This document shows, one piece after another, positions 18,103 to 61,109 of a stretch of 64,000 bases of DNA (its first letter is position 1; the number at the start of each line of letters is the position of its first letter). The translations under genes were made by a program, and so were the position numbers. The stretch lies in contig CAWBBN010000015.1 of NCBI GenBank assembly GCA_963787035.1, positions 430,306 to 494,305 on the forward strand, written 5' to 3'. Under the pieces are notes generated by a model. The model saw nothing but the letters and a program-made list of their open reading frames with translations, ran no database searches and was not told the DNA's origin. The stretch is from Vicinamibacteria bacterium. GTDB lineage: Bacteria > Acidobacteriota > Vicinamibacteria > Vicinamibacterales > JAENWD01.

Positions 18103-18576
18103 TTGATGTCACAACTACTCGCGATTCTTGCGGTTGCGTCCATCGGCCTCGCGCCACAGAACGCCGACCCCACGCAGACGCGCGCCGCCATGGCCATGGG
18201 CTTCGATCAGCAGGCGACGACGCACCACTTTCGTCTTTACGAAGACGGCGGCGCCATTGAAGTCACCGTGAACGATCCGGGCGACGTCAAGGATCGGGCT
18301 GCCATTCGTTCGCACCTGCCGCACATCGCTATGATGTTCGGGAACGGCAACTTCGATGCGCCGATGCTCGTGCACGACTCGTCTCACGTTCCAGGAACCG
18401 CGGTGATGGCGGAACGGCGCGATTCGATCCGGTACACGTACGTCGAGACGACGAACGGCGGACGAGTGGAGATCGTCACAAAGGATCCCCAGGCGCTGGC
18501 CGCGGTGCATGCGTTCCTGACCTATCAGATCGCGGAACACAAGACCGGCGACACCGCCACGGTGTCCAAACGATAA
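18103..18576 (+). CDS. Secreted His-rich hypothetical protein
   Basis: Signal peptide MSQLLAILAVASIGLAPQNA. Many His residues (HHFRLYEDGG, HLPHIAMMFG, HDSSH). No family recognised. Confidence 0.45.
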   Translation: MMSQLLAILAVASIGLAPQNADPTQTRAAMAMGFDQQATTHHFRLYEDGGAIEVTVNDPGDVKDRAAIRSHLPHIAMMFGNGNFDAPMLVHDSSHVPGTAVMAERRDSIRYTYVETTNGGRVEIVTKDPQALAAVHAFLTYQIAEHKTGDTATVSKR

Positions 18577-18583
18577 GAGACCT

Positions 18584-19084
18584 ATGCGACCCTCCGCCGC
18601 GGCCCAGGCTACCGGCGTCAGCACGGACACACTCCGGCACTACGAGAAGTTGGGACTCCTCGGGGCGGTGACGCGGTCCGCGAACGGGTATCGCCGGTAC
18701 TCCGAAGACACCATGCGGCGGGTTCTTCTGATTCAGCGCGCCCTGGTGGTGGGATTTTCGCTCGAGGATCTCAAGCGGATTCTGGCGATCCGGGATCGCG
18801 GAGGCGCGCCATGCCAGGGCGTCCGGAGCCTGGTCGCCGAGAGACTGGTCGCGCTCGACGCGCAACTCGTCGAGTTGCAGGACTTGCGCGACGATCTGCG
18901 TCGCCTGCTGAAAACGTGGGATCGCGCCCTGGCCGGGACTCAACCAGGCCAGCCGGCGCACCTGCTGGAATCACTCGGTTCAAGACGTCCGATTGAACGC
19001 GCCCGAAACGCCGCACCGAGCGATCCGCGAAGGGTCCGGAGCGGCGTGGCATTTGACACGTCCCGCGGCCCTACGCTAGCCTGA
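18584..19084 (+). CDS. MerR-family transcriptional regulator
   Basis: N-terminal HTH ...AAQATGVSTDTLRHYEKLGLL...GYRRYSEDTMRRVLLIQRA.... Coiled-coil dimerisation region. Confidence 0.75.
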   Translation: MRPSAAAQATGVSTDTLRHYEKLGLLGAVTRSANGYRRYSEDTMRRVLLIQRALVVGFSLEDLKRILAIRDRGGAPCQGVRSLVAERLVALDAQLVELQDLRDDLRRLLKTWDRALAGTQPGQPAHLLESLGSRRPIERARNAAPSDPRRVRSGVAFDTSRGPTLA

Positions 19085-19213
19085 CGGCAGTCATGGTGCA
19101 GTTCGTCCACCACGCGCACGTCCATCGCCATCTGGCCTCGGGGCCGGACCGGTCGAGCTGCGCGTAGGGCGAACGACATCAACACGACGCCCGATTTCGA
19201 GCAACGCACGCAG

Positions 19214-19241
19214 CCCCGCCGGTCCGGCGGGGTTTTTTTTT
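19214..19241 (+). terminator. Rho-independent terminator
   Basis: CCCCGCCGGTCCGGCGGGG stem followed by T9. Confidence 0.65.
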
Positions 19242-19261
19242 GGCTGGCGCCGGGCCGCGGA

Positions 19262-19440
19262 GGACGCGGAGGGTTTCACAGAGACGCGGAGACTACACAG
19301 AGACACAGAGAAACGCGGGGTTGCCGGGGACCGCCCTGGCCACGGTGGACCGGGCGGCCCCCGGCAACCCCGCGTCCCTCTGTGTCTCCGTGTAGCCTCC
19401 GTGACTCTGTGAAGCTCTCTGCGGTCTCCGGGGCGTTCCT
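19262..19440. repeat. ~180-bp imperfect palindromic element with CACAGAG-rich arms, upstream of hisI
   Basis: Left arm TCACAGAGACGCGGAGACTACACAGAGACACAGAGAAACGCGGGGTTGCCGGGG. The right arm is its near-perfect reverse complement. Related to the element at 59940-60215 (shared CACAGAGMCGCGGAGA). Confidence 0.55.
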
Positions 19441-19458
19441 GGGCCGTAGCGAAGCGAG

Positions 19459-19779
19459 ATGAACGCGATGGACTTCAGCAAGTTTCAGGGCCTCGTGCCG
19501 GCGGTGGTGCAGGACGCCGACTCGAGCGAGGTCCTGATGGTCGGCTTCATGAACGAGGACGCGCTGGCGCGCACGCGCGAGTCCGGTTACGTCACGTTCT
19601 TCAGCCGCACGCGCAACACGCTCTGGACGAAGGGCGAGACGTCGGGCAACCGCCTGCAGGTCGTGGACCTGCTGGTGGACTGCGACGAGGACACGCTGCT
19701 CGTCAAGGCGAAGCGGCTCGGCGACGGCAACGTGTGCCACACCGGCCAGCGCACCTGCTTCAACACGAGGCTCGAGTAG
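19459..19779 (+). CDS. hisI: Phosphoribosyl-AMP cyclohydrolase
   Basis: ...[25 protein letters not shown]...[16 protein letters not shown]...CDEDTLL...GDGNVCHTG. Confidence 0.85.
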
Positions 19780-19781
19780 TC

Positions 19782-20673
19782 ATGGCCACGCTGCGACTGG
19801 GAATTCCGAAGGGCTCACTGCAGGACGCGACGGTACAGCTGTTCGCGCGCGCCGGCTTCACGCTGAACGTCAACAGCCGGTCGTACTTCCCCACCGTGGA
19901 CGATCCCGAGCTCGAGTGCATGCTGATCCGCGCGCAGGAGATGGCCCGCTACGTCGCCGACGGCGTGCTCGACGCGGGCCTCACCGGCCAGGACTGGATT
20001 CGCGAGCACGAGGTCGGCCATCCGGAAGAAGCGCCGCTCGTCTCCATCTGCGACCTCATTTACGCGAAGCAGAGTTTCGGCAAGGTGCGTTGGGTGCTCG
20101 CCGTGCCCGAGGACTCGCCCTTTCAGCGCGCCGAGGATCTGGCCGGCAAGACGATCGCCACCGAGCTGGTCCGGGTGACGAAGGCGTACTTCGACGCCCG
20201 CAAGGTCGACGTCGACGTCGAGTTCTCGTGGGGCGCAACGGAAGTGAAGCCGCCGGTGCTCGCCGACGCGATCGTCGAGGCGACGGAAACCGGCTCGACG
20301 CTGCGCGCGAACCGGCTCCGCATCATCGACACGCTGATGGAGTCGAACACGCAGCTCATCGCCAACGAGAAGACCCTGGCCGACCCGTGGAAGAGGACAA
20401 AGCTCGACAACATCGCGCTGCTGCTCAAGGCGGCGATCGAGGCCCACGGCCGCGTCGGCCTGATGCTGAACGTCCGGCGCGCCGATCTGAGCGCGGTGCT
20501 GTCGCTCCTGCCCGCGCTGCAGCGGCCCACGATCTCTCCGCTGAGCGACGACGGAATGGGTCGCGGTCAACACGATCATCGAGGAAAAGACGGTGCGCGA
20601 TCTGATCCCGCGCCTGAAGCTCGCGGGCGGGCAGGGGATCGTGGAGTATCCGTTGAACAAGATCGTGGTCTGA
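19782..20673 (+). CDS. hisG: ATP phosphoribosyltransferase (long form); apparent frameshift near 20560
   Basis: [14 protein letters not shown]…. The C-terminal regulatory domain …[38 protein letters not shown] is in a different frame from the body. Confidence 0.8.
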
Positions 20674-22026: not shown

Positions 22027-23074
22027 GCGAAGGCTATAGCCGCCCCGCGCCGACGGGTGACGGGCTGCGACTGCACCTCAACGAAAACACCGCGGGCTGC
22101 TCGCCGAAGGTGCTCGAGGCGCTGGCCGCGCTCAGCGCCTCCGATGTCGCGTGCTATCCCGACTACGACGTCGTCTACCGCGAGACCGCGGCGTACCTGG
22201 GTGTGCCCGAGGAACGCCTGCTGCTCGTCAACGGGCTCGACGAAGGCATCCTGATGGCCACGCTGGTCGCGCTGCGCGGCCAGACGATGGACGGGAGGTC
22301 GGCGGAGTTCGTGGTGGTGACGCCGGCCTTCGACATGTATGCGATCACGGCGCGCGCGTGCGGCGGCGCCGTCGTGAACGCGGCGCCACGCGACGATTTC
22401 GAGTTCCCGCTCGAGAACGTCCTGAAGGCGATCACGCCCGCGCACCCGCCTCGTATTCGTGACGAGCCCGAACAACCCGACCGGCGTGCGGGTCACGAAC
22501 CGCGACATCGAGGCCGTCGCTCAGCGCTGTTCCTGCCGGCGCGCTCGTGTTCGTGGACGAGTGCTACCACGACTTCTGCGGCGACACCGCGCTGCCGCTC
22601 ATCGACGCGCATCCGAACATCATCGTCGGCCGGACGTTCGCGAAGTCGCAGGGGCTCGCGGCGCTTCGTGCCGGCGCGCTGATCGCCACGCCAGAGGCGC
22701 TCGGGCCGTTCAAGGCAGTGACCCCGCCCTACAGCCTGAACGTCGCCGCTGCCGTCGCGCTCCGCGCGGCGATCGCCGACGGCGCCCGGTTGCGCTGGTA
22801 CGTCGATCAGGTCGTGCGCTCTCGAGAGCTGATGTACGAATTCTGCGCGCGCCACGGCTTCGAGACCTGGCAGAGCGGCGCGAACTTCGTGCTCGCGCGC
22901 GTCGGCCCGCAGTCGGCCGCGATCACGGCGGCACTGAAAGCGCGCGGCATCTTCATCCGCGACAAGACGGGCGACCCGGGATGCGACGGCTGCATCCGGG
23001 TCACCACCGGCGTCGTCGCGGACACGGAACGCTGTCTCAACGCGATGGAGGACTTCCTGTGCGGCGCGCGGTAA
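22023..23074 (+). CDS. hisC: Histidinol-phosphate aminotransferase; two apparent frameshifts
   Basis: [12 protein letters not shown]… (frame 0), …[12 protein letters not shown]… (frame 1), then …[13 protein letters not shown]…[17 protein letters not shown]… (frame 2). The internal PLP Lys sits in the KSQGLA context. Confidence 0.75.
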
Positions 23075-23652
23075 TCGATCGGCGGACGACCGAGACGCAG
23101 ATTCTGCTGAAGCTGACGATCGAGGGGAAGGGCCGGTACGCGATCTCGACCGGCATCCGATTCCTCGATCACATGCTCGAGCTGTTCACGCGGCATGGCG
23201 CATTCGACTTGACGGTGAAGGCGACCGGCGATCTCGACGTCGATCAGCACCACACCGTCGAGGACCTCGGCATCGCGCTCGGCGAGGCCGTGAGCGCGGC
23301 GCTCGGCAATCGCCGCGGCATCAACCGCGCCGGCTATTTCGTCATGCCGATGGACGAGACGCTCGCGGTGGTCGCGCTCGATCTTGGCGGCCGACCGCAC
23401 GCGTCAGTGGACCTGAAGCTGAAGGTCGCGCGCGTCGGCGACCTGCAGGCGGAGCTGATTCACGATTTCTTCGAGGGCTTCGCCATCGGCGCGCGCGCCA
23501 ACGTCCACGCGAAGGTGCTCTACGGGCGCTCGAGCCATCATCACGTGGAGGCGGTCTTCAAGGCCTTCGCGCGAGCGTTGCGCGTCGCGTGCTCGAAGGA
23601 CAGGCAGCTGGCGAAGGCGCTGCCCAGTACCAAAGGACTCTGTAGCGCAGAC
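23059..23652 (+). CDS. hisB: Imidazoleglycerol-phosphate dehydratase; its 3' end reads in-frame through a REP hairpin into hisH
   Basis: GTG start overlaps the hisC end. ...[10 protein letters not shown]...[16 protein letters not shown]...[14 protein letters not shown]...[15 protein letters not shown].... No in-frame stop before the hisH ATG. Confidence 0.7.
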
Positions 23653-23703
23653 CTTCAGGTCTGCCCTTGGCACAGCGAAGCAGGCCTGAAGGCCTGCGCT
23701 ACA
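23641..23703. repeat. REP-like inverted repeat (family B) between hisB and hisH
   Basis: TGTAGCGCAGACCTTCAGGTCTGC…GCAGGCCTGAAGGCCTGCGCTACA. The left 25-mer is nearly identical to 46388-46412. Confidence 0.6.
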
Positions 23704-58305: not shown

Positions 58306-59448
58306 TCAGCTGCGGACGAGCGCCTCGCGCGCGGCGACGGCGAGCCTGCGCGCGGATCTGGTGTCGGCCGCCAGCGCCGTGAGATGCCCCATCTTCCGCC
58401 CGGCGCGGGGCTCCGCCTTGCCGTAGAGATGCAGGTGGACGCCCGGCATCGCGCAGGCCGCCGCCCAGTCCGGCTCGCCCTGCGCCCACAGGTCGCCGAG
58501 AAGGTTCGCCATGGCCGACGGGCGAAGCGGCTCGATCGATCCCGGCGGCAGCCCGCAGATCGCGCGCACGTGCTGCTCGAACTGGCTCGTCATGCACGCG
58601 TCGATCGTCAGGTGCCCGGAGTTGTGCGGCCGCGGCGCCAGCTCGTTGATGAGCAGCTCGCCGTCGGGCGTCAGGAAGAACTCGATGCAGAGCAGCCCCG
58701 TCAGATCGAGCGCCTCGACGACGCCACGCGCGATCTCGGCGGCGCGGGCCTCGACGGCCGGCGGCACGCTGGCGGGGTGCACCGAGACGTCGAGGATGTG
58801 GTTCGCGTGCGAGTTCTCGATCAGGCCGTAGCTCGCGATCCACCCGGTCACGCCGCGCGCCACGATCGTCGAGACCTCGCGCTCGAACGGGATGAACTTC
58901 TCGAGGATGGCCTCGCGCTTGCCCAATGCCGTCCACGCCGCGCGAGCGGCGTCAGCGCTCGAGACTTTGGACTGGCCCTTGCCGTCGTAGCCGAAGCTCG
59001 CGGTCTTCAGCACGGCAGGCGTCCCGATCGTCGAGAGCGCGGCGTCGAGATCCGCGTCCGTTCGGATGTGCGCGAACGGCGTCACCGGGAAGCCGCGCTC
59101 GGCGAGGTAGCTCTTCTCGCGGACCCGTTGCTGCGCGACGTGCAGCGCCACCCCGCTCGGCCGGACGGGCGCGAAGGCGGCCGCCGCTTCGGCCGTGGCC
59201 GCCGGAATGTTCTCGAACTCGAACGTCACGACGTCCACGCCGCCGCCGAACATGGCGACGGCCTCCAGGTCGTCGTACGAGGCCACGACCTCGAGGTCCG
59301 CAACCTGACCGGCAGGCGTGTCGCGCTCGGGCGAGAAGATGTGGATGCGATAGCCGAGCCGGCGCGCGGCCAGCGCGAACATGCGGCCCAGCTGACCGCT
59401 GCCGAGCACTCCGATTGTCGCGCCCGGCAGGATGGGCGCGGCGCTCAT
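58306..59448 (-). CDS. purK: N5-carboxyaminoimidazole ribonucleotide synthase
   Basis: 380 aa, intact. ATP-grasp …[14 protein letters not shown]…. Confidence 0.9.
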
Positions 59449-59954
59449 TCGAGCGTGTCCTGCTTGACGCGCGCGGTCTGGTCGGCGCGGAACGTCGCGA
59501 GCTTGGTCCGGAGGCCGGGGTCCGACGTCGCGAGGATGGCGATCGCGAGCAGCGCCGCGTTGGTCGCGCCGGCCTTGCCGATCGCCAGCGTCCCCACGGG
59601 CACTCCTGCGGGCATCTGCACGATCGAGAGCAGCGAGTCGAGGCCCTTGAGCGCGTGGCTTTCCACCGGCACGCCGAGCACCGGCAGCGTCGTCTGGGAC
59701 GCAATCATGCCTGGAAGATGGGCGGCGCCGCCCGCGCCCGCGATGATGACCTTCAGCCCGCGGCCTTCGGCCTCACGGGCGTAGTCGGCCATCTCGTTCG
59801 GCGTGCGATGCGCGGAGACGATCCGGCACTCGTGCGGGACACCGAACTCGGTCAGGACCTGGTCGGCGTGCTTCAGCGTCTCCCAGTCCGACTTGCTGCC
59901 CATGACGACGCCCACCACCGGTGGTTGCTCGCTCACGCTAGGCATCATAGCCAC
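59445..59954 (-). CDS. purE: N5-CAIR mutase
   Basis: …[15 protein letters not shown]…[12 protein letters not shown]…. Confidence 0.9.
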
Positions 59955-60215
59955 AGAGCCGCGGAGAACGCTACCGAGGTCCCGGAGGGATCAGCCACAG
60001 AGGCACAGAGAGCACAGAGGACGTTCTGGAGCGCGCGCCACAGAGGCACAGAGAACTCAGTGGTGCGTTCGCGGCCAATCTCCGTACTCGTCCGCGCCTC
60101 TGTGGCCGCGCCCAAATTGAATTCCTCTGTGCTCTCTGTGCCTCTGTGGCGGCCCGTTCTCGGCGTCGCTCAGTGGCCACTCTGATGACTCTGTGGCGGG
60201 CGAAGCAGCGACCAG
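59940..60215. repeat. Composite CACAGAG-rich palindromic element upstream of purE, overlapping the terC 3' end
   Basis: CCACAGAGGCACAGAGAGCACAGAGGA … TCCTCTGTGCTCTCTGTGCCTCTGTGG inverted arms ~110 bp apart. CACAGAGCCGCGGAGA shares 15/16 with the element at 19262. Confidence 0.55.
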
Positions 60216-61109
60216 GCAATAGCGACAGCGAGAATCGCCGCGATGACGAGAAGCGAGATGCCAGGCGGCACGTGGTAGAACTCGATCGCGAGCATCTTGA
60301 ATCCCACGTAGGCGAGGATGACGGCCAGCCCGGTCTTCAGGTACGCGAACTTGTCCATGACGCCGGCCAGCAGAAAGAACATCGCCCGCAGGCCCAGAAT
60401 GGCGAAGACGTTCGACGTGTAGACGAGAAACGGATCTCGCGTGACCGCGAAAATCGCGGGAATCGAGTCCACGGCGAACATCAGGTCGCTCGATTCGATC
60501 ACGACCAGCACCGCCATCAGCGGCGTCGCCAGCGTCCGCCCGCCCTGGCGGACGAAGAAGGCGTCTCCCTGCATAGGAATCGGTCATCGGCACGAACCGT
60601 CGAAACAGTCGATACGCCGCGAGCTTCTCCGGCGGCGCGTCGTCGTGACCCGAGCGCAGCATCCGGTAGCCCGTGTAGACGAGCAGCGCGCCGAAGACGT
60701 ACATGATCCACTCGAAGCGCGCGATCATCGCCGCGCCGAGGAAGATGAACGCCGCGCGCATGACGAGCGCGCCGAAAATCCCCCAGAAGAGCACGCGGTG
60801 CTGCAGCCGTGGCGGCACCTTGAAGAACGAGAACACGACGAGGAACACGAAGACGTTGTCCACCGACAGCGCCTTCTCGATCAGGTAGCCGGTGACGAAC
60901 TGCACCGCGTACTCGTGCCCGGCCCAGTAATACAGTCCGGTCGCAAAGGCCAGCGACAGCGCCACCCAGACGAGACTCCAGGCGGCGGCTTCCTTGACGC
61001 TGACCTCGTGCGCGTCCCTGTGCAGCACGCCCAGGTCGAGCGCCAGCATCGCGACGATGAACGCCGTGAAGCCGGCCCAGAGCATGGGCGATCCGATCGT
61101 TTCAGGCAT
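60170..61109 (-). CDS. TerC-family integral membrane protein; frameshift near 60570
   Basis: …[12 protein letters not shown]… and …[36 protein letters not shown]… in two frames. Confidence 0.7.

Follow-up and report, generated by a model that had tools for sequence, protein, structure and literature searches.

The Correia elements of Neisseria and the ERIC sequences of enterobacteria are small inverted-repeat MITEs (miniature inverted-repeat transposable elements) that are co-transcribed, cut by RNase in their stems and polymorphic between close relatives. The intervening sequences of 23S rRNA in Leptospira and Coxiella carry an open reading frame (ORF) of unknown function in a stem formed by their flanks and are excised from the transcript, and the PeSL stem-loops of T4-type phages, 'mobile regulatory cassettes' of one phage group, flank small ORFans and contain an early promoter. 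In repetitive extragenic palindromes (REPs) and REPIN-RAYT systems (PMC3116915, PMC3337134), a protein gene is flanked by inverted repeats that are also scattered as gene-less hairpins, and abstracts on such systems describe them as lineage-specific and mostly vertically inherited. Here, we analyzed a 64,000-nt stretch of a Vicinamibacteria bacterium genome (the window; contig CAWBBN010000015.1, positions 430,306 to 494,305), which carries two palindromes built from CRCRGAG heptads, one upstream of hisI and one upstream of purE. Both are probably gene-less, REP/MITE-like members of a CRCRGAG inverted-repeat family that extends across phyla and whose full form brackets a gene for a GxxExxY protein; the window copies are best read as selfish or structural DNA, not as regulators.

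The heptad stems resemble REPIN-RAYT systems in being short, dispersed extragenic palindromes that form long hairpins, in combining a protein gene flanked by inverted repeats with many gene-less copies, in having no target-site duplications and in reaching several copies per 8 kb in some genomes (three or four hairpins in Gemmatimonadota DNA such as L118 and L120, often directly 3′ of stop codons). They differ in that the linked protein is a ~125-aa PD-(D/E)XK-type GxxExxY protein and not an HUH/Y1 transposase (Y1_Tnp), that their arms are arrays of 8–9-nt repeats whereas a REP is a single imperfect palindrome with a GTAG head, that the unit is common to many phyla and to viral contigs, and that the GxxExxY gene occurs in more than one copy and inside operons. 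The first-pass annotation of the window had offered a MITE/REP family as one possibility, which comes near the mark and is incomplete: the window elements have the terminal inverted repeats of a MITE but neither a target-site duplication nor a transposase-encoding autonomous relative, and in the loci inspected no transposase was seen between the arms, the only linked gene being that of the GxxExxY protein. Like Correia and ERIC elements, the stems are small, non-coding, gene-adjacent, co-transcribed and polymorphic between close relatives; unlike them, they show no target-site duplication, no related transposase and no visible sequence similarity, and the interiors of the window copies are unconserved. 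As in the 23S rRNA intervening sequences, a small ORF is enclosed by a long flank-formed stem in a host transcript, but the heptad cassettes lie in protein-coding operons or intergenic spacers and carry a different protein family. With integron attC cassettes they share a promoter-less gene, a palindrome often with an AAC...GTT foot and an orientation that follows the surrounding transcription, whereas the heptad arms stand on both sides of the gene and form near-perfect, repeat-built stems with no extrahelical bases; no integrase or cassette array was noticed in the loci read, in which no search was aimed at integrases. On viral contigs the stem-loops flank small ORFan genes as PeSLs do, but no promoter is evident in them, and bacterial chromosomes carry them too. 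A full-text literature search, with most subscription journals outside its coverage, found no description of the stems or of their link to GxxExxY.

The palindrome at the his locus spans 19254–19434 and consists of two 90-nt arms that lie 1 nt apart and are 83% complementary according to the repeat finder, with a GC-rich inner stem following the six units of the left arm (Table 1). The predicted RNA fold of 19240–19460 has an energy of −174.5 kcal/mol, compared with −101.6 ± 5.0 kcal/mol for dinucleotide shuffles (z = −14.5), and 0 of 200 shuffles folded as stably as the real sequence. The extended palindrome that had been annotated at 19262–19440 is therefore present, and the arm sequence quoted for it was correct. 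The ~30-nt loop ascribed to it is itself mostly paired, so that the true loop amounts to a few bases around 19343–19345, and the distance to hisI, given as 20 bp, is in fact 25 nt from the end of the hairpin to the first ATG (19459) and 34 nt to the ATG conserved in relatives (19468). The outermost units are CGCGGAG, there is no recognizable TTNAC or GTNAA foot, and the 3′ arm is followed by GGGGCGTTCCTGGG, with no U-run that would make the structure an intrinsic terminator. The related element that had been noted upstream of purE is likewise real; it occupies 59949–60195, contains a perfect 28/28 inverted repeat and folds with z = −10.6. The his element comprises six forward and five reverse CRCRGAG units and the purE element seven forward and five reverse, making two dissimilar heptad elements within 64 kb. 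CACAGAG itself occurs 17 times in the window against an expectation of 7.1 ± 2.7, with 16 of the 17 occurrences inside these two loci, and a relaxed two-unit pattern (one mismatch allowed) found no match elsewhere in the window.

To place the two copies in a wider setting, species-representative genomes were scanned with CACAGAGRCACAGAGA, which returned at least 120 stretches. Among the matches listed, at least 76 array pairs run forward then reverse and at least 12 in the opposite order (76 of 88 pairs forward-then-reverse), typically as two to four units, a loop of 6–130 nt (occasionally ~500 nt) and two to four complementary units, and roughly a third of the genome loci are single arrays with no partner. 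Each arm in the family is an array of two to six CRCRGAG units with a period of 8–9 nt, the loop varies between copies, and most copies close each arm with a short foot, TTNAC for one arm and GTNAA for its partner. Over 108 hairpins, the flank consensus reads TTNAC ahead of the first unit and GTNAA behind the last, with complementarity of 80, 85, 60, 56 and 56% over the five outward positions, falling then to ~33%. The variant of the outermost unit (CACAGAG, CGCAGAG, CACGGAG or CGCGGAG) agrees between the two arms in 94 of the 108 hairpins, compared with 57 expected. We also considered whether the foot is a DnaA box, which it matches at seven of nine positions with mismatches at key ones, and whether the unit is a recombination signal sequence heptamer (CACAGTG), which it resembles; both ideas were dropped.

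The hosts among the matches listed belong to at least eight phyla: Acidobacteriota (the majority), Gemmatimonadota, Planctomycetota, Verrucomicrobiota, Spirochaetes, Bacillota, Chloroflexota and the Alpha-, Beta-, Gamma- and Deltaproteobacteria, together with one archaeal metagenome-assembled genome (MAG) of the Methanotrichaceae. Cultured isolates with stems include Pelomonas caseinilytica P7, Magnetospirillum sulfuroxidans J10 and Verrucomicrobium sp. BvORR034. Within lineages whole elements can be near-identical, as with the loop ATGAAGTCGT that is common to Longimicrobium and Gemmatimonadales copies. Viral contigs yielded at least 120 pattern stretches, with hairpins in 42 of the 120 loci listed and up to five per contig; a scrambled unit of equal composition gave 34 stretches on the viral contigs and 0 inverted pairs. 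The reversed pattern AGAGACACRGAGACAC is a cyclic permutation of the same array and was not usable as a control. In the same way CACAGAGA (e.g., 19296–19311), read backwards, is a cyclic permutation of itself, which makes arrays with an A spacer mirror repeats; this property may or may not have a structural meaning, and triplex formation was dropped because the arms are not homopurine. An assembly artefact was dropped as well, since the arms are imperfect and the family is found in isolates and finished records.

Several variations on the basic architecture were seen. At L006, L015, L034, L062, L086 and L089, CTCTGTG units are followed by feet in the loop (GTGA ... TTAAC) and then by CACAGAG units; the hosts of this reverse-then-forward form are, among those inspected, Pyrinomonadaceae and unclassified Acidobacteriota MAGs, and it looks like a junction of two elements or a permuted form. 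The loops of solo stems and the spacers of cassettes often hold a second GC-rich hairpin (L012 4222–4339, L161, L199, L273 11513–11678), that of L012 resembling an alphaproteobacterial GTCATTCCCGCGAAAGCGGGAATG-type repeat, which suggests nesting of different palindrome families. On viral contigs (L221/L239, L253/L291, L308, L334, L273) the arms bracket single ORFs of 60–112 aa, for which Pfam and PHROGs scans returned no informative matches; identical cassettes recur across these contigs, and a single contig may carry several hairpins with common loops and flanks.

The link to a protein emerged at L095, where a 468-nt 'loop' contains an ORF of 137 aa that matches TIGR04256 ('GxxExxY protein', 140.8 bits) and Pfam PF13366 (PDDEXK_3, 137.6 bits). 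A tblastn search of the 120 genome loci listed revealed at least three more GxxExxY genes, one cleanly bracketed by forward and reverse arrays (L016) and two with one degenerate arm each (L076, L105). Bracketing was then assessed in 80 GxxExxY loci retrieved from metagenomes by protein pattern, for which at least two units within 160 nt were required on each side: both sides were occupied, forward upstream and reverse downstream, in 44 of the 80, and one side only in ~12 more, whereas we estimate from the unit frequency that two units would fall in a 170-nt stretch by chance in <0.1% of cases. In the cassettes a host stop codon is followed by the foot, ~3 units, 0–70 nt, the ATG and a gene of ~125 codons, and then, after the stop codon of this gene, by 0–90 nt, ~3 complementary units, the foot and the next host gene. 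By an open-frame heuristic, the GxxExxY gene is co-oriented with both neighbors in 18 of 27 resolved loci and opposite to them in 3, with divergent neighbors in 4 and convergent neighbors in 2; a similarly rough ORF heuristic placed 12 of 59 solo hairpins between divergent genes and 10 of 59 between convergent genes.

Individual loci illustrate the arrangement. In one locus with called genes, CarboxypepD_reg, four units, the GxxExxY gene, four further units and an LVIVD-repeat gene follow one another on one strand. Finished records from three organisms have this arrangement as well: plasmid 1 of Gemmatirosa kalamazoonensis KBS708 has CGCAGAG hairpins around the gene, and in Bernardetia sp. it lies between ade and a mannose-1-phosphate guanylyltransferase gene. 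In the third, Sphingomonas parapaucimobilis YK209 (L425, NZ_CP155749.1 482837–483265) it stands between fabD and fabG and is co-oriented with them, with degenerate 5′ units (CGCGAAG, CGCGAGG) and a stop codon 2 nt before the fabG start. The catalytic D...ExK motif is invariant in the GxxExxY alignments, and the family is very large, with at least 8000 candidates. According to a superfamily survey, the function of PF13366 is unknown and the family has undergone multiple transfers between bacterial divisions and archaea (PMC3424549). Sequence and profile searches of the PDB found no solved relative of GxxExxY, and an AlphaFold2 model from a shallow alignment (pLDDT 47) was too poor for a fold search. 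The association connects an abundant protein family whose function is unknown with one specific palindrome, built of repeats and present in many phyla as well as on viral contigs. The interest of the system lies mainly at the level of the family.

At the his locus, a comparison with relatives separates the palindrome from the regulatory leader. The first-pass annotation had set the palindrome between a terminator and the start of the his operon. The terminator is there, the only terminator-like site that the scan called, but it is the his attenuator, and the palindrome consequently lies inside the 5′ leader transcript and not outside the operon. The leader-peptide ORF has His at codons 6, 7, 9, 11 and 13, five within eight codons; the run of His codons, the alternative hairpins and the terminator that characterize a His leader all lie at 19093–19242, upstream of and separate from the palindrome, which has none of them. 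Because the Rfam His_leader model gave no score on this segment, it represents a lineage-specific version of the attenuator. The promoter block is conserved in relatives, its −10 hexamer being a putative assignment that a consensus promoter scan did not call. Orthologous his loci (L001, L002, L123–L128 and L422) are 92–95% identical to the window at the nucleotide level, and the spacer between the attenuator and hisI can be read fully in L001, L002, L123, L125 and L128 and partly in L126. In the five fully readable relatives hardly any change is seen in the promoter block, the leader ORF or the terminator (19051–19242 is 95–99% identical in relatives, compared with 92–95% for the neighboring genes), whereas the spacer from the T-run to the hisI start is hypervariable: it contains no CACAGAG unit in any of the five, which have one or two CGTAGGGCCGGGCTTCAGCCCGGCC-type hairpins instead, as does the readable part of L126. 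CGGAG-rich sequence is present in the his spacers of close relatives. Correspondingly, whole-window BLAST alignments with relatives stop at 19242/19249 and resume at 19468, and no target-site duplication was seen at the junctions.

By this comparison, an insertion or replacement specific to this lineage placed the his palindrome inside the 5′ leader and also remodeled the ribosome-binding region of hisI; the palindrome has come to lie there recently, in a spacer to which palindromic elements are drawn. Expression of the operon is predicted to be governed by the conserved leader-peptide attenuator and not by the palindrome, which corrects the annotation; the palindrome, conspicuous as it is, was inserted into a spacer that is hypervariable. 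In three relatives from short-read metagenomes (L126, L127, L422) the contigs begin at, within or ~20 nt from the hisI start, as one would expect if assemblies break at repeated spacer hairpins.

The purE copy lies between terC and purE, both on the minus strand, and combines the perfect 28/28 inverted repeat (59994–60021 and 60123–60150) with nested arms. The start of purE, in its 167-aa form, abuts the outer unit of the element, and the outer arm on the other side encodes the C-terminal tail of TerC, with the outer unit at 60189–60195 inside the terC coding sequence. The copy carries the minority ...AGC / GC... foot, as do L063, L067, L070 and L085. Among the relatives compared at this locus (L129–L137), all have the 5′ array GCCACAGAGGCACAGAGAGCACAGAG and the outer units; the L130 group is missing the reverse units opposite this array, L129 has a degenerate 3′ arm where the window has the perfect one, and the full inner hairpin (~48 extra nt) and the perfect 28/28 arms are confined to the window. 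The purE locus therefore holds a heptad seed of older date, which close relatives have elaborated in different ways.

If the two copies are gene-less members of the heptad family, as we favor, the arms would be maintained at the DNA level, possibly through mobilization by, or recognition by, the GxxExxY nuclease in analogy to REPIN-RAYT, and would grow and be perfected by unit slippage or template switching. At his, the element occupies the spacer, hypervariable among relatives, that separates the conserved attenuator from hisI; at purE, a seed common to relatives has been elaborated into a nested, partly perfect palindrome. For the growth and perfecting at purE, a probable cause is slippage of the 8-nt unit together with arm-to-arm template switching, and these processes cannot explain the identity of the unit across phyla. 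How the family spreads we infer by the same analogy. A bolder proposal, which we regard as possible but doubtful, is that CRCRGAG stems and GxxExxY proteins together constitute an unrecognized selfish cassette system that transfers between phyla and is driven by the nuclease, in parallel to REPIN-RAYT. The nuclease would recognize or cut the heptad stems as a DNA hairpin, a cruciform or an RNA duplex, and would spread or maintain gene-carrying cassettes inside operons as well as gene-less stems. Were the nuclease indeed to act on the stems, the REP-type lifestyle would have been reached by a second, independent route, and the presence of small promoter-less genes within conserved operons (fabD-fabG, for instance) would become easier to explain. 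The question is testable in cultured carriers, among them Gemmatirosa kalamazoonensis KBS708, Bernardetia sp. Wsw4-3y2, Magnetospirillum sulfuroxidans J10 and Pelomonas caseinilytica P7.

A number of observations weigh against gene-less membership of a nuclease-linked family, or against parts of it. Both window copies are gene-less, as most copies at the genome loci are, with no GxxExxY gene detected by tblastn in the 64 kb, and a hidden Markov model search of ~80 solo loops found no GxxExxY fragment; gene-less loops could reflect either clean gene loss from cassettes or gene entry into pre-existing hairpins. The 80 loci tested for bracketing are the closest relatives (53–70% identity) of a query that had itself been found through heptads, and the 55% bracketing therefore applies to that subfamily only. 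Agreement in unit variant did not follow GxxExxY similarity (0.617 versus 0.610, p ~0.10), which gives no support for specific co-evolution of protein and repeat, and on viral contigs the arms bracket other small ORFan genes, with no GxxExxY seen; the nuclease may be cargo rather than driver. No target-site duplication is evident over the 108 hairpins, whose ends are inverted, not direct, with ~5 nt of outward complementarity. The his and purE elements have units in common but not interiors, and an interior 22-mer of the his element had zero exact matches in the metagenome collection, so that copy-and-paste of whole elements is not demonstrated in the window. Finally, the his palindrome is known from a single, indel-prone assembly.

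The favored reading overlaps in part with one in which the stems are modules of RNA, the 23–90-bp transcribed duplex serving as a processing or stabilizing structure, either as an RNase III-type cleavage site or as a 'panhandle' by which the message inside it is protected or excised; its effect in the his and purE mRNAs would be to uncouple the downstream genes or to stabilize them. At 23 or more perfect pairs, a stem has sufficient length for RNase III. The arms lie close to the enclosed ORF on both sides, the GxxExxY gene is mostly co-oriented with its neighbors, is found within operons (fabD-fabG, for example) and probably relies on transcription from the host, single small genes are enclosed by arms on viral contigs, and there is no doubt that the his copy lies in a transcribed leader. 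An RNA-level consequence, as a stable stem or putative RNase III-type site, is plausible because of this last position and because the cassettes are sense-oriented inside operons. A transcript selected for pairing should, however, favor G·U on its own strand, and the counts are balanced: G·T and A·C oppositions number five each in the his arms, and the sense strands of the GxxExxY cassettes have 23 G·U and 24 A·C mismatches, an equality that argues against strong selection at the RNA level. Both strands also fold alike (−161.9 and −161.1 kcal/mol for his, −162.3 and −166.5 kcal/mol for purE), and solo hairpins occur between divergent and convergent genes too. There is thus no strand-specific RNA signature, and we consider the RNA module unlikely as the main explanation; the direct consequence in the his and purE mRNAs would be limited to a very stable stem-loop that could serve RNase III-type processing or stabilization.

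For a shared cis-regulatory leader or small RNA that couples his and purEK expression, as the first-pass annotation had alternatively proposed, there is the position of both copies 5′ of biosynthetic genes with which they would be co-transcribed, and the great stability of both folds. The his copy, however, is absent from every close relative with a readable spacer while the true attenuator is conserved, the strands are symmetric, and the outer arm of the purE copy is terC coding sequence. The Rfam scan recommended for such a leader gave no match at gathering score anywhere in the window, the His leader and ZTP/pfl models included; relaxed scans (E ≤ 10) of the two loci produced only sub-threshold matches to miRNA precursors, i.e., generic long hairpins, and ten further heptad-family loci had no match. 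The suggested metabolic link of the two operons through AICAR is most likely coincidence, because the same stems adjoin unrelated genes in many phyla, and we give a shared regulator almost no credence. A purely local origin, in which seed slippage of the 8-nt unit and arm-copying template switching produced immobile palindromes with no protein link, has more in its favor: there are no target-site duplications, complementarity reaches slightly into variable flanks, unit number (two to six) and loops differ between copies, purE differs stepwise among relatives (the perfect window arm against the degenerate one of L129), and CGGAG-rich sequence is already found in the his spacers of close relatives. 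It cannot explain why the same unit, foot and orientation recur in many phyla, an archaeal MAG and viral contigs, why GxxExxY genes are tightly bracketed and why whole elements are near-identical within lineages, and the scrambled control yielded no such hairpins; we judge it distinctly improbable. Still less probable, if not quite as remote as the shared regulator, are iteron-like arrays of binding sites for a host or element protein on duplex DNA, with hairpin potential a by-product of convergent sites. The invariant C1, C3, G5, A6 and G7 with free R positions do resemble a recognition word, partnerless arrays are common and the forward-then-reverse order dominates, but the 8–9-bp period is out of step with the helical repeat of DNA, GxxExxY is the one candidate binding protein with a link to the arrays, and the co-varying arms and a foot that stays complementary as its sequence varies point to pairing or arm-to-arm copying.

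Table 1. Features of the his and purE loci in the window
Feature	Position	Strand	Details and basis
Putative his promoter	19053–19082	+	TTGACA 19053–19058, 18-nt spacer, TAGCCT 19077–19082; read from sequence
his leader-peptide ORF, 24 codons, MVQFVHHAHVHRHLASGPDRSSCA	19093–19167	+	Translation; nearly invariant in five relatives
Attenuator terminator	19212–19242	+	10-bp GC-rich stem, then T9; terminator scan, RNA fold, conserved in relatives
his palindrome, left arm	19254–19343	none	Six CRCRGAG units, starts 19256, 19265, 19277, 19285, 19296, 19304
his palindrome, right arm	19345–19434	none	Five CTCYGYG units, starts 19378, 19386, 19397, 19405, 19417
hisI (PRA-CH)	19459–19779	+	Pfam PF01502, 105 bits; start in relatives is the ATG matching 19468
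purE, 167-aa form	59445–59948	−	Start ATG 59948–59946; homologues P0121–P0133 are 167 aa; alignment
purE-side arm	59949–60021	none	Outer units 59952, 59960; three-unit array 59996–60019
Nested inner hairpin	60036–60112	none	Units 60039, 60047 opposite unit 60098; mostly missing in relatives
terC-side arm	60123–60195	none	Three-unit array 60125–60148; perfect 28/28 complement of 59994–60021
terC	60170–61109	−	Pfam PF03741 recorded on orthologues; frame shift near 60570

The genes 3′ of the his palindrome are hisI, hisG, hisD and hisC, and the relatives of HisD assign the window to Vicinamibacteria in the phylum Acidobacteriota. Relative to orthologues, reading-frame changes occur in hisG (~20549–20554), hisC (~22440–22526) and terC (~60570), so that hisC extends across three frames and hisG and terC across two apiece; either the long-read assembly contains indel errors or the genes are pseudogenes, and the shifts warn that homopolymer lengths in the palindrome may be inexact. 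Upstream, the window and L001 have a MerR-family regulator gene and a small hypothetical gene (18103–19084) that separate the ABC-transporter genes from the his promoter; L002, L123, L124 and L125 lack both, and their binding-protein gene is directly 5′ of the his leader. A second, unrelated palindrome family is present between hisB and hisH, where GTAG/CTAC-headed hairpins (TGTAGCGCAGACCTTCAGGTCTGC ... GCAGGCCTGAAGGCCTGCGCTACA, 23641–23703) form an inverted doublet resembling a classical REPIN. Alignments with relatives break here too (23637–23696). Relatives carry CGTAGGGCCGGGCTTCAGCCCGGCC at the his spacer, and hairpins of this second family are found in L002 (8690–8725) and in the his spacers of L123 and L125.

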